The notes below the pieces were generated by a model that saw only the letters and a list, made by a program, of their open reading frames with translations, ran no database searches and was not told the DNA's origin. From Dimargaris cristalligena (Eukaryota): a stretch of 48,356 bases of DNA. Below, one piece after another: positions 6,866 through 43,474 of this stretch. Both the position numbers and the translations under genes were made by a program. The stretch covers positions 62,001 through 110,356 of the forward strand of contig ML002208.1 of the NCBI GenBank assembly GCA_003614675.1, given 5' to 3'. Position 1 is the stretch's first letter, and each line of letters begins with the position of its first letter.

Positions 6866-9800
6866 AAGGGCCCCTCTCCTCCGAGTTAGCCCTCCCCCCT
6901 CCTATCAAATAGCCTAGCTTAGTTGAATCATGCGTATAAGCCCGCTTGTTAGTACTCTATTAATTCTTATTACACTACCCCTTTCCTTCTCCTTTCCTGG
7001 CTCTGTATATTTATAATTCCTTTCAGTTAACATGTGCCATCGTACTTTCTGTTCCCACTTTAAACTCATCCAGCCCCTGGATCCCGGTCTCTTTTCCCCC
7101 CATTTTTTCTCTCTAACATCCCCCTCATCATCCCCCCCTCCTTCCCGCATCATTTTTTATATTCCGGCTTTTCTTGCATTGGGCTTTTCATGGTCTTTGA
7201 CCAATGGCCCTCCACCCCCCAGTCTGTTCCGTAGTACTCCCCCACACAATTTGTAATACCTGATACATACCCAATATTTATCTTGCTTCGTTATGTAGCC
7301 TCTACCTTTTTACACTCAGTTTCGTCCTAGACTTTCCCCCCTTATGTTCTCGACGAACCACTCGCTCGATTCGCTTCCCATTCTACCGTGGCTTTATTGC
7401 GCTGTGTCTAGTTGACTATCACCGGTGGTCTAATGTTAATTAATATGATCAATAAACTACGACAATGACCATGCCATAACCCTGTAGCTGAATTATTGGC
7501 TGGCTCAATAGCCTATTAGATGTATCGCTTCCACTAAAGGTGGTCTTTAACTGGTGGAGGGGCCCCAATAGCGATCCCGCTGACACGATCGGGTGCCATT
7601 TGTCCAGCATTGAAGGGATTGCCCTTATTTGCAGTATTAGCCCGAATCATTCAGTCCCCGCTATCTCCGAGCACGTCAGTGATACTAGCTTTTTGTTTTT
7701 TCAGCACCGTGTTCGATGCTGTTTGGACTTATTTTAGAAACAGACTGATATTTTTATATTTGGCTTCACTTCGGAACGGCAATCCGAGTGCACAAGCGTG
7801 TGCTGAACTACAAGGTGTAGCCCCGTATTGTTCAGTGACCCATCTCACGTATAGAGTATACCAATATCCCTTTAGGATGAACCAGCCTATTGTTGGATTA
7901 ATATAGCTAAATTGGACTTCCCTTTCCCGTGAGCCAGCCTGATTGTATTTCTTTCTATTTATTATTTCCCCCCGTTCCCTTGTTTCCCCGTTGGGGAGTT
8001 TTATCCAGCGGTGGTGGAAGGGGTGAGAGTGCCAGTAAATTTACCGAGTTGGCTGTGATTAGGGGGGGGGGCTGAATGGGAGGAAACACCTTGGAAGGAG
8101 AAAAGAACAGAAACACCGAAAATGGATCCATACACCACCCACTCCGGGTTCAAAGGAGGGGCCAACCCCCTCCCTCCCTTACTGTTCAAATGGGTGCGAG
8201 TAAAATAGGTTTACACACGTCGAGTGGTGGTAAAAGCTGCCCCTTAGGTAGACCAGGCCAATGTCATATCACCCAAGGTCTAGCTGAGCTGCTTCAGAGC
8301 CAAAGCCAGAGTCCCCCCGTTAGGCGCATCCTTCCCCACCTGCGATCAAACATTTGAAACTTTCTTCCACCCTATTCTAGGGCCATGGGTTTTTACCAGT
8401 CTGCTCCCTATGTTACGTGTTTCATGCTTCTCCGCTCGCTCGGGTAGGGTGGATCATGGGAATTTCGAGACTTGACCTGGTGGTCCAATTGGTAATTATT
8501 ACTCCACTGACATAATAGAATGATTCGACAACGGCCTACTCTTTCACCCGGCCGTGTTGCGGGCTCCCAAAAAGCCAAGCACTGGTTTATATTCCCCATT
8601 TTTTAAGTGTATACATGTATATCAACACAATAATAAATGTTAAGTAATAACCCTAATAAGAAACAGGGAACGCCTTTGCTTGATTCTTGTACCAGCTACT
8701 GTCAAATACCACCGGCCTATTCACTGACACCCCACCCTGGCCTGCGGAATCCTTGGGTCCTTAACCTCCCCGGCCACGTTACACCTCGCTAGCTATATTC
8801 CCAGCCGGGTGTGTGTCAGCTGGGAGCACGAAACCCACTCGCTCCACAGGACGTCAAACCTTTGGTTAGTGCCATCCAGCTCTAACACTATGCTGGCTGA
8901 ATCGCTGGGATTGAACCCCGTGGCATGCGCTGCGTGGGGAGAGGGGTCTGGCTTACAGTCGCAATCGCTGGCCTTCTCCGCATGGGCTACCGTTGCATTA
9001 TGCCCGAGTAATTTGCTGGCAGACGGCCCCAGTGAACCTCCCACTATCGCCTTTCCCGTCCCTGGGGATGAGCGTCCGGCTTATCGGTGCGGCAAGTGAC
9101 CACCCGTTTATTCTCTTCCTTTCCCTCCCGGTGACCTCCAGATATCAATTTCCACTTAGGACCTGAGCCAAGTTCACATGGGATCTGGCCTGGGACTATC
9201 TGGCTGCATCTATCGCCTTGTATTAGGCCGGCTATGGGAAAGAACGCGACTGTAGCTCAAAAGGGTTTTCGGGATTGTCCCCCTCGCCCTCTTTTCCCAA
9301 ACCTGCGGTCCCTGCTTCGTTCCCATTGCCTTAGTTTAGGGAATCACCCACTCCGATCATAGTGAATAAGTAAACTGGTATGGGAAAGCAGGGTGTTCTA
9401 TCCCCCGCCAGTGACTATGGGCTATTAATAAACCCCCTCACTCTGAGATTAATACTGGTCTGGACCTTTTTCTCTATATCATCCCAACCGGTGAGTTGCT
9501 CTTATTCAAGATATCACTAACACTATTCAAATTTTAAAACCAATGACCTATTTCTTATCACTCCATACAAATTCCTATTATTATTAGTATCATTAGTATT
9601 TCCGCCAAGGGCCATCGTTCCATCCTACCAGTCGACACCACTTTACCCGTCTCCCCTCCCGCAGATTGCTTGACGTTTTTCATATTCTTAGTTTTCCGCC
9701 CGTCCAGCCTGGGAAGGCATGATGTTCAGCACCCCTGGTTACCTGTCAGGGGGCTCCGCCAACCCGACACCGGGCTTTGCTCTCGTTTTATTGGCTGTTC

Positions 9801-12800
9801 TCCTGGGCTGGCAGAGCAACAGTGTAAAAAAATGGGTGGATGTGTGTGGTATGGTGTGTGTCTCTCACTCTCTCTGTGTGTGTGCGTATGTGCGCCCATG
9901 AATGAACAGCTAGTTTAGTGGCATTTCCCCGGCTCATAACCCCGCTTGGGTTAATTAAGCTGCTTTAAAGCCTCCCCCCTTTCACCCGCCCCCTCCCCAT
10001 CTTATCGTTCGGAAACTCCACTAATTAAGGGAGGGCCACAGCCCTTGCACCGGCTCGCTATGGCATTCGTACCCAGGACCCCGCATGGCCGTCACGGGCC
10101 CTCTGCAGGGCAGGGGTAGCAAAGATAGCCGACAGGGGTCGATGGTATAGGGCAGAGCACCCGCCGGGTGGAAACTGAGATTCCATGACTCAGGGTGTAT
10201 ATTCCGAATTTAATTCCGCATCACCCTTCCTGGCCAAAGATGGTCATTCATTAGAAGGTCTAGTTTATCTGCAAGGGATTGGGATTATCGCGGTTGCCCC
10301 ATTGTAGTCTGGGCTGCGGAACCCTTAGCGTTGTTCACCCATGAGGTTGAGCACCGCGTAAACAAGAATAGGGCGTAGTGGAGCCGACGGGTGAGAAGTC
10401 GCTTAGGATACGAAATATCCCAATTGCCTGACCCATAACTATAATAATTAGTTGAGCTTTATAGTAGTCGCTTTTCCAACTCCTTAGCTACCAGCAGTCA
10501 TTAAACCTGAGTAGAATGGTATTACACAGGGCACTGCTAGCGTCACTGCGCCACTTCGCTTACGGGGATGTCAACTTTTTTTTAAGCCCCCCTTGCCTCC
10601 CAAAGCTCTACTCCATTGCTATACTAACTGGGGTTGCTTTGTCATCTACAAGCACAGCAGCCTCTACAACCCTCCGAAAGTCCTAAAGAATCCAGGGTGG
10701 GAGGATTATTGGGCACTGACTTCACGGCAGTGTGTCGAGCCGTCACCCGCACACCAACCTGGCCACTTCACAACGGTCCGCGTGCCAAGTGTATTGGTTT
10801 ATTATCCCAAAAAGGTAAAATGAGGGGTCAGCAGGAACGGGGAGAACCAATAGCACACGGCCCTAGGGATTGTCAGTATGACCTCAACCAGGGAGGTTTT
10901 TACAAAGGAGGGGTGTGGTGTACAACGCTGACACGGCACTTAATGCCAAGAGAACGAGTGGATGATGAAACTTTTGCACTAGCTGAATTGCGCTTTTCTC
11001 TAATCTAATATGATTATACTTATATAACGTAGATACTCCGACCCGCCGCGTATAACTTCCCCTTGGGTCCGCTATTGTCCTTGCTGGCTCAATGAAATCA
11101 TAGGGTCATTTTCCTCATTGACAGGCCCTTTCACTCCTGGCCTCTTTGGGCCGGCTGCGAGCACGAGTGGGTACTGTCTATATCGGGAATAGCTTTCATC
11201 ATCACTACTATTGGAAAATGCATTAACAATTCCGTTAGTCTGACCACCATACATTTCAGTTATCCCGCTTTAGAAATCTGCGGGACAGGGATTTGATTAG
11301 CCAATTCGACGGTAATGAACGATAGTAGATCAATAACCCACACTATTTCCGACCAAGCTTTCCAATGCATGGTAACCATTATTGTACTGTTTTGTCAGGG
11401 ATGTGGGGAGGAGGGTGATGAACCGATCCAGTTGTGGTGCGGCTCACTCCACCCCAGATGTTGGGCCGCCCTTTTAAATCCAGTAAGATTTACCTCTGCC
11501 GGGCCTAGATAAAAAAACGCTAGAGCTTAGAAGGGGAGGGGAAGGCAGCTGAGAAATAAAGCAGACCCCAATTGACGGACGATTTCATACCGGGAGAACT
11601 GAGGTGCTTTCAGGCCGATGCTAGAAGCGGCCACATCCTACATCCTAGGGTAGGCGAGCGTGTCCGTCTATACCCAAACCTATTAGTTGGAAATGAAGGC
11701 CCGGCTACAAAGAAGCGGGTCGCTGATATTTAAGATTGGACCAGTTTCAGCCCACCATCCCCTCCGAGTCATGAGCTCCACTACCCCTTTGGCCAGTGGG
11801 TAGGTTACACCACAGATCCTTAACGGGGAACGGCAGCGTCATCCTTACCAGCGATAGGAATGCAGGGGGTTATTGGGCGGAAAAGTGTACACCGTAGTTG
11901 CTGGTAAACGAAGAAATGGGTTTGCCTAAGTGATGCCATCGCTCATTTTCCGTCGAAGGTTCCATTGTCATCCCTCAAGTGCCAAAAACAATGCGATATA
12001 TATAAGCGGCCGCATGAGAGGGGCCGATTGCTTCCTGATGCCACAAACATTTAATATTATCCCGCCGTCGCCTAGTCTCATTGGCGCATTATTCTTCCTA
12101 TCCGTTCGTATTAGCACCACTTACTCTTCACGTACTTTGAAACTGCAAGTTGCCTTTTTCTTTCCGCTTGGCTAGTGACCAGGTTCCCTTACACAACCGA
12201 ATGATATCTAAAAATAACTCGGTCCTGTCGGAAAAATGGGTTACCAAGTCCATGGGTATGTCAGAACAGTGAGCCTAAGGGTCCAGAAATGGTCTGAGAT
12301 CAGTCCCCCCATCCTTAACCCCGAAGCTTCCTTGTCTAATTAAAGCAACTGGTGGGTGGGGCATGGCCGCATTTGGTGTTATACACCCTATGTTTAGCAT
12401 AAACGGGAATGGTAACTGTCACCTTCTTTTATATCTATTTTTTCTCTCCCCTATTGACTCTCAATGAATATTTAGGGACCAAGCTGGCCGCAACCAACAA
12501 TACGCTAAGTTTTCGCAAAGGAATACACCCCCATTTTAGGAGTGATCTATGTATTGTTGCCTGCATGACCATCTAATCAACCACCCCTTTTCATAGTCAC
12601 CTGCTTGAACTGCCACTGGGAGGGCCATGGGAAGCTTCCAACCCTCGCCGAGATGTCTCTCACATGGCCCTACGGGCCTCGGGTATTCTACACCTGGCTC
12701 ATTAGTTGACTAGACTATGTTGAACGGCCAGCGCACGCATGATACTTGGTTTTCGTGGTTTAATATCTTGGCTAACCCAGCACCATTTCCCACCATGTCA

Positions 12801-13083
12801 CACAAACACCTCCCTTACTAACAGTCGACACGCACTGGCCATTGGTGATGTGGATTTTATTATCATATGCTACTTTTTCGTCGTCTTCTAACATGTGTAA
12901 CATGGATTCACGCGGGCTTTTACCTGTCTAATCCGGAAAATTAAGTAGGCCGCAAATGTTGTTGGATTTTAAGCGAAAATATTAAAAGTATCCTAAAAAA
13001 TGGAGGCTGGCTACGATGAGTCAAAACAACTATCACTTCAACTACAATGGCGGCGCAAGTCATCCAAAACAGTGGGTGGATCG

Positions 13084-13227
13084 ATATGGGAGAAGTTCAT
13101 TCAGGCTGTATAATGAAAAATCCATTGGATGAGGCCAGCATTACTGGTTAAAAGCTATTCTCACACATATTCGCCCATACACGTATATTGTAAAACCTTA
13201 TACAGCTGGTTTGAATTTTACTCATAT
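13084..13227 (+). mobile_element. 144-bp MITE-like element, copy 1 (intergenic)
   Basis: 130/144 identical, ungapped by manual alignment, to the reverse complement of 29704-29847. Imperfect 29-bp terminal inverted repeats (21/29 matches); ATAT at both ends; no recognisable coding capacity. Confidence 0.75.
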
Positions 13228-16200
13228 TGTTCCCGACTCCAGTATTCCCTAGGTCCATCTCCAGACCCCATACCCCCGATCCGTCCGCGACATTCCCCGC
13301 CCCGATAGTCTCCCGAGTCCTGCCCATCATTTTGGTGGCCCCTATTGTACGTATAATTTTTTTACTAATATGAATGGTCACATGCCATGCTGGGAGCAGG
13401 CCGCGCCGGTTGTTGTTTATATAAATTGTTTTGCCCGAATCATTGACTAATCGCTCTAGAAACGCCCAATTGGGTATAGCCAGGTTAATATGGCGCGGCC
13501 TGGATATCAACCACCTCGTGAACGCCGCATCACGAGCCCTCTTATTAAACGGGTTTCTTCCATTCTCCCATTGTAACCCAATACTTTTGAAACGTTTGAA
13601 CCGTATATAAATGTATATACACTTATATCTATATATAAAACCCAATTCCTAGAATTAAAGTCTGTTTCGCCGAATGGAATAAGGGCAAATACGCGTCCCC
13701 CCATCTGACCTGTTATATATTTCTTGGTTGTATCAGCTCCCTAATTTTAAGACCATGAATGAAGAAGCCAGAAAAAAATTGTACTTGGGATTTGGTTGAA
13801 GGGTGATCCCCCTCTTTGATAGTTTAATTACATCCCCTCGAAATAGTCCAACAGGGAAACCAACATATTAGCATAGTCCACATTTATCGTTGGTATCACT
13901 AAGCCGTTCAGTGGACTAGGAGTATATCAGCACAGTCGAGCCTGGGAATACTATCAGGCGGACAGTTGAGGAATGCGAAAAGGTGTAACACCGTTTTAAT
14001 AGACAGCGAAAGGAATGGGGTCATGTTGGATACACATGATAGGAAGGGACCCCTATAAAAGAAGATTCAATAACCCAAATAAATGGTCAGAAACTGGGAG
14101 GGGAGCTAGAAGTTCCCCGTTGGCCCTATTTGGATACCACCCCATTTCTGACTACCACTCGCTGGTGATTGAGTTTCAGGTTTCCTCTGGTCATTTGCTA
14201 GCAATTAAAACCAAAAAGAGGGCCCCTACTTTGCAGCGGGGGAGCCGGCTGCCGACATTATACCATCTACATGACTAAACCCAGTTGTCTATTCCCTCGA
14301 TTTATTAATAGTCAGGGTACATGTGCGTACGAGCAAATGGATTTTCCTAAACTTCCAGCGCCGGAGCGATTCGGGGCGGTCCGATGGGGGAGGTGAAGGA
14401 GATATTCAGTGTAGTGCCCAATCAGACGCGCCAGATAATTAAGCTGGGGTAGTATAGTTGGTGGTAGTCAGCTTAGCTACTGGCTGCAGGCATCACATGG
14501 GTGCTCCCTGTAAAAGGGTCTTGGGAAGGCTCCATAACACTTCAGGAGGCCCTGGCCAATCCGAGCGGTATACAGAAGGAGGCGGAGAGAAAAAGGGAAA
14601 GAATGGGGGACCACTATGCCCAAATTCCATGCTTGGTATATTATTATTCTGCCCCACCATTACGACGTGCCGCTGCTGAACCCATGCCTTCCCATTGTTG
14701 TATAAGGGCTGGTTCACCGGAGCGAAGAGTGACCGTTATCACTAATACCTCGAGTACGTATGTATCTCCATCAGGAAATAGCACGGCAGCCGGCGGTTAT
14801 TACTGCTAAGCAGGCCCGTCGGCTTTCGCGGCAATCCCACGCCCAGATACGCGGTGCCACTGACTAGGGATAAACGGTGGACTTCCAAGACCCCCATATC
14901 AGCCAGGAGCCGCACGAAGCCACTTCGGGCTGTCCTCTCCCTTCTCATTACTAGGATATTACATTGACAGGCTGGTCAGATCAGCGGGAACGCCGGAGTC
15001 AGTTGGATGGATAGACCGTTACGTGGCCCCTCGGATTCCAATCGGATTATAAGATTTTTCCCCGGTTCCATACTCTCCTCGGTAGTATCACCAACCCCTT
15101 TGCTGGAAATTCTTTTGGTTTGGGTGACTTACCAGGAAACGGGCGCAATCTCCAATTGAAAGAATCCGTTTGAGCCGGATGGACATTTCTACATTTTATA
15201 AAAATAACATCCACCCATTGGTCTCTTCCGATGCTAAGTCATAATTAGATTAATTACACGACCCCTCTGTTCCATCATTTTCGTCGAATATCTTGGCAAA
15301 AACCAATAACCCAGTAGGGGTGGCCATTGGGGATGCCAATAACATTCGTAAGGGATTGGTGCTATCATTTGATAAGTCAATTGCCCATTAGACCTTCTGG
15401 AGTTCTATTTGGCTTGAGGCAGAGTATCAGATAGCGGGATGGTCACTTCATTCTTAGCTCTCCAAATAACTGGCGATGGTGCCCACGCCATCGTAACCTG
15501 TATGAAAAAAAAACCCTGTCCCAATAATGGTCTTTTTTAGCAACCCCCTCCCCAATGGTGCGTCCCCTCGGCCCACCTACTTGAATCCCGCGGACAAGCC
15601 GGCAGGGGATGAAGGGTGGAATGGCAACGGCCGATGGCGCCGATAGTGGATCGATTAAGGCGGATTGTTTAGGAGGTGGGTGGTGCTTGTCCACTCTCCC
15701 TGGCCAACGAGGCGACCTTTACCGGCCTCAGAGTAGGACCGGTTAGAGAATTTGACAATGTACGATCGAAGGTGACACAGTGCTAGCTCAGGAATTGGTT
15801 TTTCGCTGCTCGGTTGGGGTTCGTGATGCCCTAGAAGTGGACTGTGGTCACCCCGCCCCAATTACAGGGTCCCCTAAGGCGCCCTTTACAGGACTTCAAC
15901 CTATCGGACCATCAGTGAGACAATGGGAGCATTGCTTTCCCGTTCCCGCAGTCACAAATAGGCCTTGGCGGGGATATTTAAGGCATACTATATACCTAGA
16001 GCCGCTCCTCTCGTGCCGTAAATGGACCAGTTCCATGGACTACGGTAAGTGGCCCGCCTTCCGTTAGCGAACAGTGGTCACCATAAACCAAGGGGAGCAT
16101 CCGTATGGGGTGATCGGTCGTCGGGGGACATCTCCCACCGCCCACATGGCCCCCCTATTTAACCAATTCTGACCGGTTTGACCCCAGCGGGCTACCTTTC

Positions 16201-17076
16201 CTAGCCAGGTCGGCCCATTTAATTGTAAACCGGCCATTCTTAATCCACATTACCTTGCTAGGGTCTGTATCAGAAGGCTAAAGACTGCCTACCTGGTCGA
16301 CATTGAATTGCCTTGGTTTGGCCAAATTGACCCTAGCGTGTGCAACCCAAACCCTTTGGATACTGAATCAGTGTTGTTGTTACCTGCGCTGGTCCAAGAC
16401 ACCTAATGCCAGCCTTGGCAATATATGGGTGAAATGGGCCAAGTTGATGAGAAGCCGTGTTACCTCACCTCCTCCGCTTTGGACTTTGGCTGCATCGACC
16501 TCTTCAATTTCTCACCCCCACGATGCCGCCTACTGGGGGTTCGCATCCCCACACGCTAGGCAGCTGCGAGTAAGAGCACCACCAATGGGTCATTTTGTGC
16601 AGCTTGTAATATAAAATAGAGAAAGTGGCCCAATGGCCGTTTATAAACGAAATGAATATAAATGGTGGCGTCGCTAATACAAATACACTGGCAAAAAATT
16701 TGACAGATTTCTAGTATGGCGTCAATATTATCGATGACTCCACTTTTATTAGTGAGGTAATTCAACCTTCACTGCTAGCCGCCGTCGTTCCCACGCGAAG
16801 CAGCATCACCAGCCGGATTTCTCATTGTCATTTTTAGCGATATTCAACCGTGATAATAGCTGAAGTACGGCATGGTTAGACGCAGACAATACCATCCTCG
16901 ATATAAATTTCTACAACTCCCCACCCACTGTTAGGTATGTGTTAACTGACATTTACTCATCGGAGTTCCCGCACCGCCACCCTCTAACCCTTGAATACCA
17001 CCCGAAAACTGCATGTATCAGACCCGATATGGATCGGCGTATGCAATGGTCCTAACTACTGATAATTTACCCGAAA

Positions 17077-17092
17077 GGGGGGGGGGGGGGGG
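17077..17092. repeat. G16 homopolymer, with GT-rich and (GAGAGT)3 low-complexity sequence shortly downstream
   Basis: Directly visible. Confidence 0.9.
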
Positions 17093-20062
17093 TTTGGACG
17101 AATACGATAATTATTTGGGTTGGTGGTGGGGGTGAGAGTGAGAGTGAGAGTGGTGGCCAAGAGTTTACAGTAGAAATGGTGATGACCATCGACTAGCCAT
17201 TATGGATCCCTCGCTTCCCAAGCGAAAAATAAAATCAACGGCGTACGAACGATTATCAAATGCCTTTTGAAGTAGAACAGATAATACCGAGCGCCCATCC
17301 GCCATTCTGGCTATCAAGAAATAAAGATTGGGATTTTATTGATAGACAAGGATGCGGATTTTTCTTCCCGGAACAGCTCATGTTTTGGGGAGATTGGCGC
17401 GTTGATGACTTTAGGACATGGTCGCCATTAGCCAGAGACGAGGGTAGTAGACGTAAAAAGGGATAAGTAGTAAGGCAATCAAGGGCAAAGAGATAATATT
17501 GGAGGTTTGGAGAAGGCCCTAAAATCCGCTATTTTCCCTTATCGAGGTTGCTATACTTTATTAATGTTAAGGGAAGCTCTCTTATTTGGGGTCCAAAATG
17601 ACTATTGTACGCATTGGTAATTAATACAACATCCCCTTATCAAATAGCTTAACTGTCAATCGAGCCTCTCTATAATCTACACGCTTGAGACCAACCCTGT
17701 CCTGCATCTAGGAATCCAAGTGACTAGCCATCTGGTGGCGTCCAAATATATGGTCTAATATTGGTTTAAAATATCTGGGGGTTCATAACTATAGCATGAA
17801 AAATTCCTAGTTTGATAGCGGAGTAAAATGAAGGTGCAGAAAACCGCAACCTTGATAAAATATCAGGTAATCACTTACCCTCGTCATACTATACGCATAT
17901 AATTATTATAGGCGCCGCTCATTTGAATTTCATTGTGGATAATTGTATAATCACATCGGCATACAATTTTTGTACATGTTCCTTCAAAAAAGATAGACAA
18001 GTGGAATAAGTTCGGGACCGGGGGAGGGGGGGTTAAAGGGAGAATCATCAGGTTTGTTGACAACCCGGTCTAAATATGTTGTTGAGCATCCCACCTATAT
18101 TCGTAAACTACCAATTACGCGCGAAGAAATTGCTCGAATGTAGCTTAGGAAGGTCCCAGGTTAACTTTGATTTTCCCTAATTAAAGCCGCCGATGCAGAT
18201 GAGCTCTATTGGGTCGGCAACCAGGCCATCAGTGCCTATTTAGTATATATCGGGTGCGACATCAATGTAAAGTGAACCACCGATGGCCAATGAATGCATA
18301 CCCTGCGTATAGTGGCATAATGGCCGCCAAATGGTTAGGTTTGAACCAAAGCAAAGTTACATGGAGGGTGCAGGGTTCTATGGATAAGTACGAAGGATAA
18401 ATGAATGAGGCCATGCCATTAGGGTTATATTGAAGGAGTACTAGTGGCCCTTATCCAATGGAAGCTGAGGGCATGTTCCTTCCAGGCTTAATCAGTATTG
18501 ATAAGACACATTGACATCAAAGATGTAATACGAAATGGCGATGTTGATAACGTATGGGATAATGTTTGATTGACCGGATGGAGCATCACACTGTTTATCG
18601 ATTGCAACATTGTCTAGGTGACTATTATGCCTGGGACACTGACGGGGTTGATGTTAAGCTGCCAAAATTGATGGTGCCCATGGACTGCTGCTAAGCGGAG
18701 GGCTGATCCATCGTACAGAGAGAATCCCCCCTTTAAACCTCACAGGGCATTCAATAGAACACCTGGCGGAAATGTTAAAAAAATATCGTAATTGAGTTTG
18801 TGATTTCCACGTATTCTCATTGAGGTAAAATCTTACCCATGTGAGAAAAAGGGGTAGAAAGGGTGGGGGGGGGTCATTTTACAAAATATGTTGGCTGAGT
18901 CCCTCAAAGGGGAGGAGAATCATTAGATTATTTGAAGAAATATATATGAAAATGGGGGGAGATACACCGGTTTAAACTGTTATGGAAACTGCAATGGCTC
19001 ACACCGCTGAATTGGTGTTGCCCGTTCTATCCGCTGAGGATATGCAGCGGGGTCGACTCATAGACTGCTATTGGTGCCGACTATTATTATCAATAACGTG
19101 TATTTTGTAGGCAAGTTATACTCGATGGTTAAATAATAGTCTAAACTCCGTGTTAATGTGGGGTTTTGTTTGTGATGGTCCTTAATCGACGCGGGATATG
19201 ATATGGAATAAAAATTCGGTGAAGTTGATTTTTTGAATATGGGGAACGTTGCACCCCCACTCAATATAAATGGTTTTGGGGTCAGGGAATATCGCATAAA
19301 TCCCTCGCGTAGACTAAGTGCTATTACTAAACACCCCATTTAATTATAGTTGAAGTGTGGCCCATTTTCTAATTTTGGGGGCATTCCACGTACACTGATG
19401 GATATGAAAATAATAGATTTGAGGGGGAAACGGCAGAGTGAGGTCACCACAATTGCGCCATTTAAAGCGACCGGTAATTATAGGTGAAGGCATATTATAT
19501 TAGAACAGTAAAAAATGGTACAGTTCTAGGGATTCAAACGGTACGAATGGGTGAGCCCATGGGCAGTGTAGGATGTCTAGGATAGTGATTTCGATGATAC
19601 AGAGTGACTTCGCGTCACATAATAGTGTATTGGTCGTCTTGGGAGTCCTTTGAAAAATTCTGAATTTAGAGTCAGGTCAGCTGAGTGGAAAACGTCGGTA
19701 GTCTATTTATCGTGTCGTCTACACTTGCAGAGCGGCTAACTAGGGCTGGATCGGCTTTAAATAGGAAAGGCGCTAACTAACCAACGGCCCAGCAACCAAT
19801 TGAAAAGGCCTATTTTTTACATCAGCAATTGAGTGACGATACCATGTTTATGAGCCTTCGACATGCGGGTGCAGCTTGAAATGCTGAAGCACTTGTAACC
19901 GTTTTTCCGCGACATTGTTTTACCAGTCCTTATTTAGTTATTTTTATTCCTAGTCGGACCCTTCCATTTAGCCCATCTTACGCTAAGCTGTGTAATTCGC
20001 TACATACCACTCATCTATCGGTTATTCCGCGCTACTCAAATTCCATTGCCCTACATTTTATC

Positions 20063-29431: not shown

Positions 29432-32355
29432 CTAGTTCTCCTGCCAAGCCACGCAGGTGAAAAACAACCGGGCCTCATTTGAAGAAAGATTGGTAATTTT
29501 ATAGTTATTGCCTAGGCATGCAAATTGGGGTGTTTGTGGTGTTAAAGTAGTAATAGTTACGGGATATAAATTAGTTGGGCTCAACAGTTAGTCTGGTTGG
29601 ATAATTTCGAACATATTTTCGGTGTAACGGGTCAGATATGCGGGACATGGGTTTCTCAGATAATTAGAGGCAACCGAGTGTGTAAGTGATTCGGGAATTA
29701 TACATATGGGTGACATTCAAACCAGCTGTATAGGGTTTTACATAATACATGTATGGGTGAATATGCGGGAGAATAGCTTTTAACCAGCAATATTGGCCTC
29801 ATCCAATGGATTTTTCATTTTACAGCCTGAATGAACTTCTCCCATATTAACTTACCTTGGGGTGCCATAAATTGCCCCCCAGGACCCACATGGAAAGTGT
29901 TGAAGGCGATTGAAACTTCGCAAATTCCCGAAATGACGTAAAAGATCTGACATTAAATACGACCAAAGTATGGGGAGTAAATTCGACGTTCGAGCCGGGC
30001 ATATGGTTAGCCCTCTTATATGTTTACCCTAGTGGGTTCATTCGGGCAAATTCAATTTACAAGAACAGCTGCAAAAGACTGGTTGATTAGAACTGTATAT
30101 CAATTCAATAACCAGTGTAACTCTCTACTTACCATGGAGTTATTCGGCATCTCTTGGGTAGGCCGTTTGCCTAGGGGTGGGATCTGTAAAAATCCGGAAT
30201 GGAAAGCAGACGTCTCTTCTAGGCACTTGGTCTCTTGGACCGTAGTAGTCGGTACCAGTGGGTCTGCACTCAAGGCAAGTGCTATAGTGAATTCACAGAA
30301 ATAGTATTCCAAGCGGCAAATGAAGACTCAGCATTGTAAATAAGAGTATTCATGGATCCCATTCGATGAATGATGGATGTCTCGGGGGATGGGAAATATC
30401 CACAAACGCCCCAAACCATTCCTTCCACGGGAAATGTGAAAAACAGCAACGATGGTTGCTCCATAGTAAAAGCAGCAGAAGGTACTTACTTTTTTCGCCG
30501 ATATTTTGAGTTTGATAGTCAAGCACATAGCCCTTATTGGACGAGATGGGTAGGGGGGCGTCGGCTGAGGTACCTGGTTCGCCAGGCAATGCCGACTGAG
30601 TAGTAGTCGACAGGTATTGTGATCGAGATGGTATCAATTTTTTCGCATGAACTGGCTGACTGGCTGGGCTGTCGGGACTCGTGGTCCGCGGGCGTTTTGA
30701 TGTAATCGAAGAGGGTAAAATATCGGCAGGTTCACAGCCAGGAACAGTATTGGGGTTGGGTGGTGGTGAATCATAGGCCATGGTGGGATCGCAGCCCGAA
30801 TCGGCAGGGGACAAAGTGCCAGTCGGTGAGATGTGCGATTGTTTAGGGGGGGATAGAGAGCCGAGTATTCGTCGTATAGGTGCAGGTGTTTCCGGATACA
30901 GGTCGATTGGTTTACGTGTCGCCCCGACTAGATTAATCATTCCGTCATCACAAAATGACCCCTCGGGCGGGCTACCCAATGGGGTAGGCCGAGGCTGGCG
31001 GTGGTTGGCATTATCGGGATAGGCAGTATTATGATGGTCAGCGAAAGGCCTGGGGGGATCCGGCAGCGGATATGCTATGGCCCCCGGTGAATGTTTAGGA
31101 TCATGGTGTGTTAGTTCCTCTAAAGATGAGGATGGGGCCACCGAGCTTGGCTTAGTGGTGTTCATGGAAGGAAGCTGATCGGATTTATAATCCAGGCCAA
31201 CATTACGAAGGCGCTCTACGTGGGGGGTTTTACGTTCCCTTCCAGCTGCAGTAACACTGGTTTGTCGCCGGGACGAACCATGGGCCACCGTTGGTGGTGG
31301 ATTAGTGGAGTCCGACGTTGGCTTGATGGAATAGGCGAATTTGGCGGGGGCTATTAATATAGGCGCAGTTATAGTTAATATTCCAGGACGTAAACAGGGG
31401 GTCAGTGGTCGGAAGTGAGCGGTAATTGCAATTATTGGCTGGTAGTGGCACCCAATTGCGTCAAGGAAAATGGCACCAGAATCAGTGAAGGTGAATAGCT
31501 GTATCCGCCATTTACGCGGGGAATAAAAGTCGTGAATAATTTAAATAGTCGGAAACGGGATTTCCAAAACCTACCGATTTGCGGCTTTTTTATCCGGCCT
31601 AGTTTTAGATTCTTGGCATGTGTAAAGGTCGATAGGGTTCGCCGGCGGGAATCTTGAGCAACGGGAGGGTGTGTTGGACTGGGCTCTTTTGGCTGAGAAG
31701 GGCGGGCGGGTTTAGAGGCTGGCGAAGCAAAGGCCGTCGTAAAGTCGATGTGTTTGCGGACTGATTCGAGATCTTTAATATCCAGCATGTTAGCCGCCTG
31801 GGCCTCGGCCAGATCTTCGATAGGACTTGGGACATACTTGGCCGTCCCGACGGTGGGAGGCAGGGATGGGAGTGGGGGCGGGCATGGGGAATTGGAGGCC
31901 GACTCTGGCGATGCTGCGTCATAGCCTGTAGCGGCAGGTGAGTCGGTGTCGGAAGGAGCGGGTGGGGGTGAATCCACGGCGGCATTGAGGACATCGGGGG
32001 ACGCAAAACACGGGGAACGGACCTTGGCCGGGGACTGGTTTAAAGGACTTGCTGGGTCTGAAGAGCGGACGGGCTTCGCGGGGCTCAAGTCACGAACCAG
32101 CCTGGGTACCTGCTGGTGCGGGTTGGTCATCTGGACAGGCATGCGCGAGGCGGCACTGGGTTTAGCGGGGGGATTCTTCTTCGACTTGGGGTCGGCTGGC
32201 AAAGTAGCGTCCCGAAAGAAGGCATCGATGTTGTCCAAACCATCGTCGTCTTTGGCCACGGGCTTGCTGATGTGGATACCCGTTTTGCGGCCGCGTACGC
32301 CCACTTCGACGGGGTTATTGCTGGCCCAGACGGACGCCTTGTTTGACGGTTGCAT
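29432..32355 (-). CDS. MIF2: Inner kinetochore protein Mif2/Cnp3/CENP-C, about 653 aa; exons 32355-31575, 31350-30490, 30281-30133, 29946-29856, 29511-29432
   Basis: N-terminal VGVRGRKTGIHISKPVAKDDDGLDNIDAFF matches the Mif2/Cnp3 N motif. The spliced C-terminus FHSGFLQIPPLGKRPTQEMPNNSMIFYVISGICEVSIAFNTFHVGPGGQFMAPQGNNYKITNLSSNEARLFF is the CENP-C cupin domain. Four GT-AG introns, all phases consistent. Confidence 0.9.
29704..29847 (-). mobile_element. 144-bp MITE-like element, copy 2, inside MIF2 intron 4
   Basis: About 90% identical to 13084-13227; imperfect TIRs (21/29). Intron 4 is 344 nt, or 200 nt without the element, matching the other MIF2 introns (186-224 nt). Confidence 0.75.
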
Positions 32356-37233: not shown

Positions 37234-40200
37234 TCAGTGAGTGTCTAGATTTAATCTTTGCATACAGTTAGAGGAGATTGATAGCAGGCCTGAAAAGGGA
37301 AGTGCATATAAACCCTGGCTTAGCGATAATAGCTCAAACTGGTGTTTAGCGAATTATTTAATACAAAGTGATGAAACCCACGGGATTTTTCCACCAATGA
37401 GGCCATCGCCATTGATCGAATTACACCTGCTATACCACATTTTCCACGTTGACGGGTGTGTTTGGCATAAATTAAAAACACTGATCGGAGTTCACGCCCG
37501 TTATGATTCCTCAACTTAATGGTTCTTACCCTCGCCCTCATCATCTAAATCATCTTCGCTATCCACTTGACTTGCACTGGGGAAGGGCCCGCCGGGGGGT
37601 TGGTTGCCCGCCTTGGTTCGTTTTGATTTGGAATTCGCCTGCCGTTGGTGTAGCATTTCGAATCGAGAGCGCCCGACTTTCTTCTAGGGAACGAAAGTAA
37701 ATAGGCCATTTGAGCAATTGCCGTAGTGATTAAATATAAGGTCAATGAATGCGGCGGAGGGGGGTGGGGTTAGTTAGTGGAAGCGTTGTCGGGTCCAGGC
37801 GACTTTGATAAAATAGCCAGGAACAAACTCAGATACGAAATACAATCTAAAGTGAATTACAGGGTTCAAACTTACCTTAGCAAGTTGGGGGGTAGTCGTG
37901 GAGGGTGGTTGGTTGGAAACCCTTCGTTTTTTCTCGGTCGGCTTCGGTGTTTTACGGGCCAATGACCGCTTGGTAATTTTGGCAGTCGCTGGCGGTGTCG
38001 AGGTCGACTCATCGTCGTCATCATCACCATCACCATCACCATCGCCGTTGTTATCGTCGTCATCAACAGCCTCAACCTCTTCCATATCACTGTCATTATC
38101 CGCTAGGGTCTGGATTAATTGCTCGACGCTATCATCTGAAACGGCTGGGGCCCGGCCCCGACCACCGGGGGAACGACGGCTACGGGGCCCACTTCGGCCG
38201 GCCCCCGGTTCCGTCTCATCCGAACTCGAGACCGGGTCCATCCCACCCGCATCTTCGACGGGCATCTGGGACGACACTTCCTCGCCCGCCAAGTTGCGGT
38301 GTTTGAGACTTCCCAGGGAAAAGGCCCCCAAACAGTTGTTCCGTTCGAACATGGACTTGACCCGGTACAGTAACACTTCGAGCGTTTTGCGGGTCAGGGG
38401 CACCAGAGCCGTCAATTGGGAATCCCGGGTCGTTTTCGAGTGACCGCAGATGGTCTGGAGGGTCCGCGTGGCCCGCTGCAGTGGTTTAAAGATGGTCGGA
38501 ATCTGGGTGACGTGGCTGCGGAAGTGCCGTTCCATGAATGTGAGGTAGGTGTCCGTAAACGCCGTGACGAACAGTCGGCCCTGGCGGAGAGAGATACCCA
38601 TCAGTTCCTTGCCCTCATGAAGCTGGACCAGACTGATCAGATTCCGCCAAATGCTCACTACCGCATGGATATCGGCCAAAGTTTGGTCAACGACTTGGCT
38701 CGTGGCCTCCGGGGGTGGCTCAAATCCCGCCACAAGGTCGGTGAGGGCCGTCGCCACCGCTCGGTAAAAGACAGGCAGGGTCTTGGCGGTTAATAAGGGG
38801 AAGGCGGCGATTTTGGTTCCGCCCTGTTCAAAGAAGGCCCTGAATCCTTCGTTAACGTACTGAGTTATCGCTAGGAGAGGCGTAGGGGCAAACATAATTT
38901 TCCACTGTAGGATTTGGGCCAATTCGAGCGGTTTCAGCGGAGCTGAGGCGCGCCGGTTAGCTTGTTCCTGCTCGGTCGCAGGATGGGTGAGTTGACCGGC
39001 TAGTTCGGCTACCGCGTGGCCCAACTGAATCAATTGGGTATGGTTCGTCACCAAGTCTACCATTTGGTACGGTTTACGGCACTCCTTCGCCTGGAGCTGG
39101 TTGGCAAAGTCCTGGGGGTACAGGTGGTACCAGAGCAGCTCGTAAATCTGCACGGCTAATTTGAGTACTTGCACCGTCAACTGGGTGGAGCCGGGTAACC
39201 GGCGGGGGACCGCCAAAATTGTCTCAAAGGCCGTCTGGGCGTAGGCAAGTAGGGTGGGCTCGTCATTATCCACTGTGGCCATGGTCACGCCCAGTTTGGA
39301 GCCCAGATGGGCCAGGGTCATAATCAACAAGCGCCGGTGTCGGGTCTGGCGCAGACCACTCCATTGCAACAACAAGCCTACCGTAGTCAATAATTTAGTA
39401 AGGCAGTCCCAGTGGGTAGTTAAAGATGCCGGCTCAGGGCCAGGCCCCGGTTCGGCGCCCGGGATTTGCGAGTGGGCATCTGGTTCTCCACTGGTATCTT
39501 CGTCGGTGCTCGACTGCAGATAGACCGTATTTTCAAGCACAGTCTTCAGATTGGTCACCAGAACAGGTAGTAAACCCATCAGTCGCGTGTAAACCAGGAC
39601 ACTGTAGTCTTCGATAGTACCTTGGCCGGCTGAACCCCCCGCAGTTGAGAGTTGAGCTGGCCCACCCATTGCGGGTGGGGTTGGGCTCCGGTAGTCGCGA
39701 GTCACGCACCAACTACTCAATACCGGTATGAACAGGGATTTGGCTACGGTGGTCTCTAGCTTTCGAATGAGGTCATCCAGTAGGTACTCGAAGCAAGCAA
39801 TAGTGAATGTACGTTTCAAACTCGTCTTGCCCTTTGGAACAACCGGTAAAGGTTGGACCGACGCAAATGACAGGATACCGTAGGCGTCAATGGTGAGTTC
39901 CCGCATGTACATATCCACCAGTACCGACCAGTCCAGAGGGACCGACGAGCGAGGCCCACTAATGATGTCGTTCTGCCAAGCGGTAGGGGGCAAGACCAAA
40001 CTGGGGTCGTAACGGTCCACGGCAGCCACATGAACGGTGTTAAATACCCGGCGGATTTCAATCACATGGTGGAGTCGGGCCACCACGCGGTCCCGCATTT
40101 CGTCGTTGGCTTGGTCGGAGAAGGCATTCAGTAATTCCCGATACCAGTTGAGGGCCACCAGGAGACCCACCATAGCACGTTGTTTCATCGGTTCGGACCA

Positions 40201-42681
40201 CCCGGACTTGAGCGTAGTTAGATGTTGGCGATGGAACATCAAAATGCCACATCCCAGGGGCGCGTCTATGTCCATCAGCGAACCTTGGTTCACTGCCTTT
40301 TCACAGGACTGGAATAATTTAAATAGGGCCCCTAGGCATGCTAGTGGGTTGCCGTCCATATCTTTACCCGCGACTTGCAAATCGTTGATAATATCCGAGT
40401 GCTTATCAGCCTCAGCACCGGAAGTTTCTTGCAGAAACTGGTGCAGACGGAGGACCACCGGAGAATCTAGTTCGTCGATGGCGTCCCAAATGTCTTGTCC
40501 GAGGGTATCGGTGCCGAGTGCCGGCGACTTATCTTTTCGGGGGTTTACTTCGGGAGCTCCGGGTTGGGAGGCCGAAGGATCCTCGCCTGGGTAACAGGTA
40601 ATGGCATCGGCCTCACAGAAAAACAGGTCGGCGAAGGAATTGGCCACATTCTCGTAGAGCCACGTTTCCAACCGGTGGTCTAACCGACTGCCGATAACCG
40701 CCGTCGATAATTCATCGTAAGCGATCGCCAAGCAGGTCTAGGAGCGGCCGCCATGAGTAGTCGCGGGAAGGATTCAAAAAGAGTTAGCGTGCAGCGAAGT
40801 TAATAACGGGTAAAATAACGAGGGGTGGGCCTGAAACGAGTAAAATATACTCAGGAAATATTGACCCATACCATACGGGGCCCGTAATAAACCTTTTTAC
40901 CGGAAAAATAAAATAAAATTATTAGGTCGACTTACCCATGACCGCAATCGGCCGGTGTCAATGATCAAATTGAGGAGATGGAGCGAGTTGCGCAAAAGGG
41001 CCGTGCCGGCCGTGCGTTCCGTCGACTGGGTTGACGATGTACCACTACTACTGCCTGCTACTGCAGTCTCTGCTGCGGGGTTCATAGGGGCCGCTAGTCG
41101 CTGAATAACCGCTACTCCACCGATAATACCCACCACCTTATAGCGGCGACTCGGACTGGACAGCTGTTTCCGGATAAAAATGTGGATTTCATCGTAGAAG
41201 CCCGTTTCGTGGGGGGCGTCCCGGATCAAGAGGCCTAGGATACTAAAGAGGAGGCGCACCTGATCGAAGTTCAGATTGTCAATGTAATCCAGGATCCCCC
41301 GAATAAAAATAGCATAGGGTCGCATGGCCGCGGGGGAGCGTAGGGTGATGGCCTGGAGGGCGGCGAGGGACGTATCGATTTCGCAGCTGTCGCCGCTGCC
41401 AATATGGGTGACTAGGGCACCCACTACTTCCTGGCGGAAATACGCGTCAAATATGGTGAAGCAGGCCTGGTACATGTCCAGAGCTACCGTGGCGATAGTG
41501 GGGGACTGGGTGCCCAGCCGCATGAGGTTTTCCGTGAGGGACAGCAGGGTAGGGAACTGCTGCTGAAGGGCCCGCCCGTAACGCTCCAGGGCCTCCCGGA
41601 TCGGGGCAGCCGTGAGTTGCTGGGACATGAGTTTGCGACGCAATAATAGCTGGACCCGTTTGCGGGTAGAGGCTATACCGTATAGCAGACAAAGCACCAT
41701 AATATCTAGAGCGTAGTGGCTCTCCGGCGTGGCCAGGGCGGCAATCAGTTTCAGCCAACCGTCCCGGATAAATTTGTGGAACTGGAGGCCAAAGTTAATG
41801 GCGTCCAAGATCAGCGCCTCGGGCTGTGCCGTACCGCGGGGGACCGCTAGAACCACGGCTTCGTCCTCAGGGGGCCGCAGGGAGGCCAAGTCGAGGTTTT
41901 TACGGATCCGGGAAATCAGGGGGATGGCGTCCTCGCTGGTGGCCGTCTGAAACAGGAATTTAATCATTACGGGTAGGTCCTCGGTATCGGCCGACCGGAG
42001 GCGCTCGAGCACCCGCTGCCGCATAGTATCGATTAAGTCCACGGGGCATTGGAGATTCGACAGGGCATCTAAGACAGGGACGGTCAGGTTTGACTGTTCT
42101 TCGAAGAGACCCACGAGCTCCTTAGCTACCGCTGAATGCTCGGAGTCAATGACGATATCCGGGAGTGAGGCAATGACATCGCGCTGGGCGTTTCCCCCCA
42201 GAATCGAGACGATTTCCATGAGCTGGTTCGTCAGGCGCTCGGGGTCCAGGATGTAATCCAACCAGCGCAGCTGGCGCACAATCAGCGTGGGGGTACTTAT
42301 TTCCTCCGTAGTGTGGTCCTCGTCGCTTAACTCGGGGAGTTTCTGCAGGAGGTATTCAATCAGATCGGATTGGAGCCCATCGATGCCCAGCAGGAGGCGG
42401 ATAAGGGACTCGTTATTCGGGGTGGACGACTGGTCCCGGTGGTCGTGGTCCCGGGTGGAAAACATGGGTACCAGGGACATTTTGAAGCGGGCGATATTGT
42501 CCCAGTACTCCTGGAGTCGGCCCCAGAAATCGGCCGTCGCGGTGTCCCCCTGCTCGGCCAGGTGGTCACTAAGGGCCTGGCGGAATAAGGGCGCCGGGAC
42601 CAGCAGTTGCAAATGGCCGCCGGGCTTGGTGGGCCATTGTACCCCGAAGCGCTTCAGATCAGCCAGTAGCGCCTTCGACAT
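37234..42681 (-). CDS. FANCD2: Fanconi anemia group D2 protein homolog, about 1590 aa; exons 42681-40936, 40737-37876, 37683-37530, probable last exon 37244-37234
   Basis: ESLIRLLLGID..LLQKLPE, IVRQLRWLD, QEVVGALVTHIGSG, DYIDNL, DEIHIFIRKQLSS..YKVVGIIGGV, NWYRELLNAF, LQRATRTLQTICGHSK and AFSLGSLKHRNLAGEEVSSQ are FANCD2 signature blocks. The last exon is less certain; without the third intron the ORF stops at 37516. Confidence 0.93.
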
Positions 42682-43474
42682 GGTATGGGTTTGTAAGAGG
42701 GTCTCGGTTGGAGAGCTGGGTCGGTGTTGACCAACCAAATAGAAGGGTTAGAGCTTGCTACCAATCGGCGCGTGGGAGGAGAGGGGGAGTCAATACGAGT
42801 ATAATGAGAGGGACACGCTTCTGAACTTAGACGAGAGAGTGGTAAAAGGTATAAATGTACACAATTTTAGGCAATGGTCGATAAGAATAACAGCATGCCG
42901 ACAAGAAATAACGGAAGAACCTGGCTTTAGGGACTGTGGCTTAGCGAAGGCTTGAGATAGTCTATAACCTGCGTAAACCAGAGCGACTTGTTTTTTATGG
43001 GATTGAGTGAATGACAGGACTGTGTTACCGCAGCAACCGGAGAGCCACTTTTTGTATGGGTCAATGATTGAAGCATTGTTATATATATAGCCAGCCATGG
43101 GCAACTCGAAAAGATCGTAGAAACTCTCACTACCGGTCTACTAAATTAGGACCCATACTAAAGCTCTACCAGGCTGGTTGGGTGATATTCCAAAATTTAA
43201 TAAGGTCCATAAGTGGTTAGATTAGGCTACTGGAAAACATGGTGACGGGAATGGAGGAAATGAACTACACGTAATAGTAAGTCGATACATCGAAAAGTGG
43301 GTAAAGGGGGGAGGAACTATGTAATACAATGGATAGGGAAGGAATCGGTATAACGGGCAATACCAACTAGAGGTACGGCCTGGAGTGATAAACAGGTGGA
43401 TATAAAAGCAAAGGGGGCTGGCGTGTCCTGGGAAAAGAGAAAATGCGGGCTAAACAACATTAAGCTAAGGAAAT

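Follow-up and report, generated by a model that had tools for sequence, protein, structure and literature searches.

Results

A CENP-C/Mif2 gene with both conserved ends

The window analysed here, a 48,356-nt stretch of DNA from the mould-parasitic fungus Dimargaris cristalligena, carries a spliced CENP-C/Mif2 gene (Table 1). All four introns of our model have GT-AG borders (224, 208, 186, and 344 nt), contain stops, and have a GC content of 0.39–0.43, as against 0.53–0.57 in exon 2, which is a single continuous open frame; no direct or inverted repeats were found within the gene. Ordinary eukaryotic genes surround it (CDC50, a Zn-cluster factor, SPRY, FancD2, LRR, SH3, and ATG101), and none of the 80 window ORFs scanned was a histone or another kinetochore gene. 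Elsewhere, some 13 kb of the window (positions 7000–19800) holds one stop-to-stop ORF of at least 150 aa and no Pfam match among the scanned ORFs of at least 78 aa; this part is gene-poor or rich in small exons.

Table 1. Features of the CENP-C/Mif2 locus and two other genes or ORFs, in window coordinates.
Feature	Position	Strand	Description or evidence
CENP-C/Mif2 gene	29432-32355	minus	5 predicted exons, 653 aa
Exon 1 (ATG; residues 1-260)	31575..32355	minus	Mif2 N-terminal motif, Pro/Ser-rich linker, onset of basic block
Mif2/CENP-C N-terminal motif, residues 17-50	32206..32307	minus	Pfam PF15624; PDB Mif2 chains
Basic block, residues 237-310 (17 K/R, 3 D/E)	31202..31647	minus	spans intron 1
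Intron 1, 224 nt, GTAGGT...TAG	31351..31574	minus	GC 0.43; stops in 3/3 frames; common to public model P0001
Exon 2 (residues 261-547)	30490..31350	minus	remnant, then long neutral Pro/Ser/Thr-rich stretch, then pre-cupin segment at end
Probable degenerate CENP-C motif remnant, V293-Y315	31187..31255	minus	best site with indels allowed
306-nt in-frame segment, intron in P0001	30928..31233	minus	GC 0.53; in-frame stops 0 vs 6 and 12 (other frames)
Exon 3, pre-cupin segment and first cupin strands	30133..30281	minus	gene model, cupin alignment
Exon 4, cupin core	29856..29946	minus	gene model, cupin alignment
Exon 5, cupin end and TAG stop	29432..29511	minus	gene model, cupin alignment, Pfam PF11699 E 0.017 (exon alone)
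FancD2 gene, two long exons	37774-42747	minus	Pfam PF14631 E 1e-120 and 2e-57
Multi-pass membrane-type ORF, 374 aa	35005-36129	plus	weak DUF7789 match, E 0.002

Exon 1 matched the Pfam Mif2_N family (E 2.9e-6; 28.4 bits, above the curated cut-off of 23.5), and residues 17–50 aligned with the Mif2 chains of two PDB entries (5t59_C of K. lactis, E 7.9e-4; 7on1_C of S. cerevisiae, E 0.014); this N-terminal motif is presumably the outer-kinetochore end of the protein, which binds Mis12/MIND. At the other end, the spliced C-terminus (exons 3–5) aligned with metagenome CENP-C cupins (best E 5e-6, 27% identity over 79 residues), and alignments over the cupin region were obtained with 12 of 22 metagenome ORFs at E values up to 0.24. 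The last exon alone gave a weak match to Pfam CENP-C_C, below the cut-off (a control cupin locus, L016, reached E 1.8e-26 with the same family), and a PDB search with that exon returned no CENP-C match. We read the C-terminal CENP-C-type cupin, from the spliced alignment, as present in full. In a protein-cluster atlas, the clusters nearest to P0001, the public model of this gene, are Mif2/CENP-C at 0.76–0.77, which is a lead only, and exon 2 alone fell nearest to unnamed clusters, also at 0.76–0.77. Judged by its sequence, the locus is a genuine CENP-C/Mif2 gene with an intact frame, splice sites, N-terminal motif, and cupin, and the first-pass annotation, which had named it on the strength of an N-terminal motif and a complete cupin, was right in this identification. 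Its layout is that of the fungal CENP-C/Mif2 proteins (S. cerevisiae Mif2, S. pombe Cnp3, and Coemansia reversa CREV001084), which likewise have an N-terminal Mif2 motif, a long low-complexity middle, and a C-terminal cupin with a segment preceding it.

The public gene model truncates the cupin

Exon 1 is 100% identical over 260 aa to P0001, a hypothetical protein of D. cristalligena that shares intron 1 with our model, excises a further 306 nt, and ends within the cupin. It terminates after exon 3, so that positions 29432–30132 are excluded and most of the cupin is missing, which is why P0001 is annotated with Mif2_N only. We considered and rejected the 306-nt segment as a true intron: both its GC content and its stop-free frame resemble the rest of exon 2, and it is more likely to be coding. 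Excising it as in P0001 would halve the motif remnant described below. A proteome survey relying on the public model, with its shortened cupin and divided remnant, would therefore misread this CENP-C gene.

Codon bias is weak in exon 2 (score 0 to -0.08, as against 0.33–0.59 in seven training ORFs), and exon 1 scores 0.39 in its first half and 0.17 in its second. The first half of exon 1 has a GC of 0.61 and a third-position GC of 0.72; both drop to about 0.5 in exon 2, where third-position GC lies below that of seven other window ORFs (0.64–0.83); fast evolution of the CENP-C middle region may be the cause of this drop.

The canonical CENP-C motif is absent

The CENP-C motif has been published as the pattern R....P..[YFW]W (PMC5710141), and the 653-aa model contains no match to it. 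Its only Trp residues are at positions 10 and 650, just as the first-pass annotation had noted when it reported no Trp between residue 10 and the last few residues. We also built a motif HMM from natural motifs, starting from 83 metagenome matches to the back-translated pattern, of which 69 had a basic residue upstream and 44 remained as unique sequences, and ran it against 2002 targets (all six-frame window segments of at least 15 aa plus three gene models). The highest score was 5.0 bits, compared with 31–57 bits for held-out motifs. The pattern used to fetch the motif set fixed eight positions (R, P, L, Y, W, R, N, and E), which makes this HMM strict and biased to the canonical form, and we therefore used a smoothed matrix as well. 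A PDB search with three candidate remnant stretches returned no CENP-C match. A stretch with PIDLY (residues 403–414) was rejected as the motif, as it has no Arg five residues before the Pro and scores -2.4 and 1.8.

A motif hidden by a wrong splice model, or lost to an amplification or assembly error, would give the same picture. The public assembly of the species was made from amplified single cells, according to PMC6784888, which also gives it as 99.34% CEGMA-complete, and a Phe-Trp pair is kept in six of the nine stop-free GT-AG arrangements around intron 1, through donors downstream of the GTAGGT site. None of those nine arrangements, however, yields the canonical pattern, and among 12,126 hypothetical single junctions across the whole gene just three do so, all three beginning outside the coding frame. 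The read-through of the intron-1 donor, RIKKPQIGRFW, has the wrong spacing for the pattern and scores -1.0 in that register, and it spans the GTAGGT donor that the public gene model uses too; we rejected it as the motif. The motif thus occurs in no frame and across no usable junction, the gene is free of direct and inverted repeats, exon 2 is continuously open, and the remnant departs from the consensus at several codons rather than by a single base or a frameshift. We regard an artefact as very unlikely.

The canonical CENP-C motif is absent, as the first-pass annotation had claimed, and no usable alternative splice restores it. As the canonical motif was not found, we class the gene as a CENP-C variant by descent and not as a canonical member of the family.

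The metagenome matches included eight loci (L003, L009, L017, L032, L037, L061, L063, and L075) with a near-perfect CENP-C-like motif in an ORF of about 260–320 aa, whose C-terminus is a conserved Cys/His-rich region and not a cupin. No Pfam family was found in the three of these eight that were tested; they could represent a further protein that binds CENP-A, or mimicry of the motif by a mobile element or a virus.

A probable remnant of the motif overlaps a basic block

When one short indel is allowed with the smoothed matrix, the best site in the protein is V293–Y315. In this stretch Arg298 and Pro303 are retained at the five-residue spacing, which occurs at just two R....P sites of the protein, and Arg-Asn and Leu-x-Tyr come after them; the stretch lacks the aromatic-Trp pair and the Glu, has no aromatic residue between Pro303 and Tyr315, and requires one inserted residue. 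A faint remnant had been noticed here in the first-pass annotation, and it is indeed present, although the extent given for it (about 31208–31253) was too short. Its score was reached by 13/1000 shuffles (2/200 and 1/200 in smaller sets), and it is the sole site at that score among 658 six-frame window ORFs (46,922 aa) with indels allowed. With five non-cupin rows dropped from the matrix, 5/1000 shuffles reached the score, and one unrelated window site outscored the remnant. Without indels the remnant is not the best site and nothing is significant, the best score being reached by 212/1000 and 86/1000 shuffles; the statistical support is modest, because the indel was allowed only after a likeness had been seen by eye. 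The distance from the remnant to the cupin landmark counts against it (274 aa vs. 139–164 aa in 13 control loci); in early-diverging fungi the motif-to-cupin distance, taken by eye from the CenpC sequences of PMC5579357, ranges from about 150 to more than 300. From its sequence, V293–Y315 is probably the old CENP-C motif, which has retained its anchor Arg but not its aromatic-Trp pair.

Solved structures show the upstream arginines of the motif bound to the H2A/H2B acidic patch, and the hydrophobic tail of CENP-A bound by the Tyr-Trp or Trp-Trp pair (PMC6776904). The remnant overlaps the end of a basic block, which its composition marks as a candidate DNA- or nucleosome-contact region. RK clusters or an AT hook beside the motif form the DNA-binding part of CENP-C (PMC5710141). 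The Dimargaris protein has RK clusters before and over the remnant and none in the 97 aa after it, where all 13 control loci have 2–4. It differs from other fungal CENP-C/Mif2 proteins: it is without R....P..[YFW]W, without an AT hook (the published pattern was not found in the 653-aa model), and without RK clusters after the motif site, and its middle is Pro/Ser/Thr-rich.

The retained positions raise the alternative that CENP-A is present and is bound directly, by a motif that has co-evolved beyond recognition to match an altered CENP-A tail. The anchor Arg, the Pro, the Arg-Asn, and the Leu-x-Tyr positions are kept with hydrophobic residues nearby, and some drift is tolerated in Allomyces, where the Pro is replaced (PMC5579357). 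Against it, the interval Pro303–Tyr315 has no aromatic residue, and specificity resides in the aromatic pair in the solved structures (PMC6776904); we consider direct binding of this kind unlikely.

Searches for a second CENP-C gene

Word-index searches (5597, 2, and 3 candidates) and phmmer on cluster representatives, with queries that included the N-terminal motif, the segment before the cupin, and P0001 in full, recovered P0001 and no other orthologue or paralogue of CENP-C, and a metagenome scan confirmed an orthologue in none of 97 stretches. These searches are insensitive and no proof that orthologues are absent, since they also missed well-known fungal Mif2 proteins. They bear on the possibility that the gene is a sub-functionalised or decaying duplicate with the motif residing in a second CENP-C gene at another genomic site. 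A non-haploid state has been proposed for Dimargaritales, two genera of which show high BUSCO duplication (PMC9866270), Allomyces has two CenpC entries, one of them motif-less, and M. verticillata has two CenpC loci (PMC5579357); the weak codon bias of exon 2 points the same way. On the other side, the frame, splice sites, and cupin are all intact, and the searches gave P0001 only, although a distant or unannotated paralogue would escape them. We think a duplicate of this kind improbable.

Motif decay is unusual among fungi

Among the CenpC sequences compiled by van Hooff et al., 2017 (PMC5579357), read by eye, the aromatic-Trp pair is present in 17/17 of the fungal species read and the exact pattern R....P..[YFW]W in 16/17, Allomyces being the one in which the Pro of the motif is replaced. 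Coemansia reversa, the nearest listed relative of Dimargaris, and Conidiobolus coronatus both have a canonical motif and a CenpA entry (PMC5579357). Dimargaris belongs to the Kickxellomycotina, the subphylum that also holds Coemansia reversa. Given that the motif is kept across this fungal set, Coemansia included, its decay in Dimargaris is unusual and later than the split from Coemansia. The gene is a real and unusual CENP-C variant whose motif has probably decayed in place.

Discussion

Loss of the motif with retention of the cupin has a precedent in dragonflies (Odonata), in which the CENP-C cupin was kept and the motif decayed after CenH3 loss (Drinnenberg et al., 2014; PMC4359364). Dimargaris CENP-C resembles dragonfly CenpC in its clear cupin and decayed motif; it differs in that CenH3 loss and holocentricity are documented for the dragonfly, and the two cases are independent, as they fall in different kingdoms. 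Among fungi, Umbelopsidales keep CENP-C with CENP-A absent, and Mucorales have lost both (Navarro-Mendoza et al., bioRxiv 10.1101/706580). Both groups belong to a subphylum other than that of Dimargaris, and whereas Mucorales are without any CENP-C, Dimargaris has retained it. The precedents on which the first-pass annotation leaned are therefore genuine, and one trait of CENP-A-deficient kinetochores, CENP-C lost or its motif decayed, is shown by the Dimargaris locus described here.

Motif loss need not entail CENP-A loss. In chicken, viability does not depend on the single CENP-C motif while CENP-A is present, and the budding-yeast motif is essential (PMC9252888, PMC7729030). The CENP-T-dominant chicken kinetochore would be one route by which the motif is freed from selection; in sequence, the chicken motif remains conserved, whereas that of Dimargaris has decayed naturally. 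The correlation between CenpA and CenpC profiles is only r=0.46. Finally, CenpA without CenpC is listed in parts of a curated set for two microsporidia, Dictyostelium, and Entamoeba (PMC5579357).

We reasoned that the gene is most readily understood as a genuine CENP-C with in-place decay of the motif, one that has ceased to read the CENP-A tail and depends on other proteins for its recruitment, and we consider this account likely. The protein would still dimerise through its cupin and remain linked at its N-terminus to the Mis12 complex, and its basic block and anchor Arg may contact nucleosomes or DNA non-specifically. CENP-A's hydrophobic C-terminal tail would no longer be recognised in the known way, and recruitment to the centromere would fall to other inner-kinetochore proteins of the CENP-N/L, CENP-H/I/K, or CENP-T type. 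Such a recruitment scheme would fit a fungus in which CENP-A is present, which we find somewhat more likely, or one in which it has been lost.

Under the second of these, CENP-A was lost in the lineage, the motif decayed for want of a partner, and CENP-C persists as it does in Umbelopsidales. We hold this sub-case possible but doubtful, a weighting judged from how rare both events are rather than computed. The motif is otherwise kept in all 17 fungal species of the curated set (PMC5579357), loss of the partner is precedented in dragonflies (PMC4359364) and Umbelopsidales (bioRxiv 10.1101/706580), and what Dimargaris lacks is the residues that read the tail and the RK clusters further downstream. 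On the contrary, Coemansia reversa, of the same subphylum, has CENP-A, and several lineages keep CENP-A without a detected CENP-C (PMC5579357); moreover, the 75-proteome survey of the Mucor study gives Mucorales and Umbelopsidales as the only fungi with CENP-A loss, and the survey may or may not include Dimargaris (bioRxiv 10.1101/706580). We found no literature on the Dimargaris kinetochore, and the species table of that study could score CENP-A there.

On this view, Dimargaris, and perhaps all Dimargaritales, might have lost CENP-A independently of Mucorales and Umbelopsidales and would then be a second CENP-A-free fungal lineage, with its CENP-C caught in mid-decay. If true, the outer-kinetochore link, the dimer domain, and a generic nucleosome anchor would have been kept while the CENP-A reader is gone, and centromeres might be set by DNA sequence or by CENP-T.

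It remains an open question what specifies a centromere when CENP-A is missing, and natural examples are few. A CENP-C that has lost just its CENP-A-reading residues flags its lineage for a CENP-A check, and for Dimargaritales this is a sharp prediction. If CENP-A proves absent, a new independent loss would stand beside Coemansia with its standard system and would allow a comparative account of the order of losses. If CENP-A is present, our preferred account would make Dimargaris a natural uncoupling of CENP-C from the CENP-A tail, and a contact that is essential in budding yeast would be shown to be bypassable in fungi.
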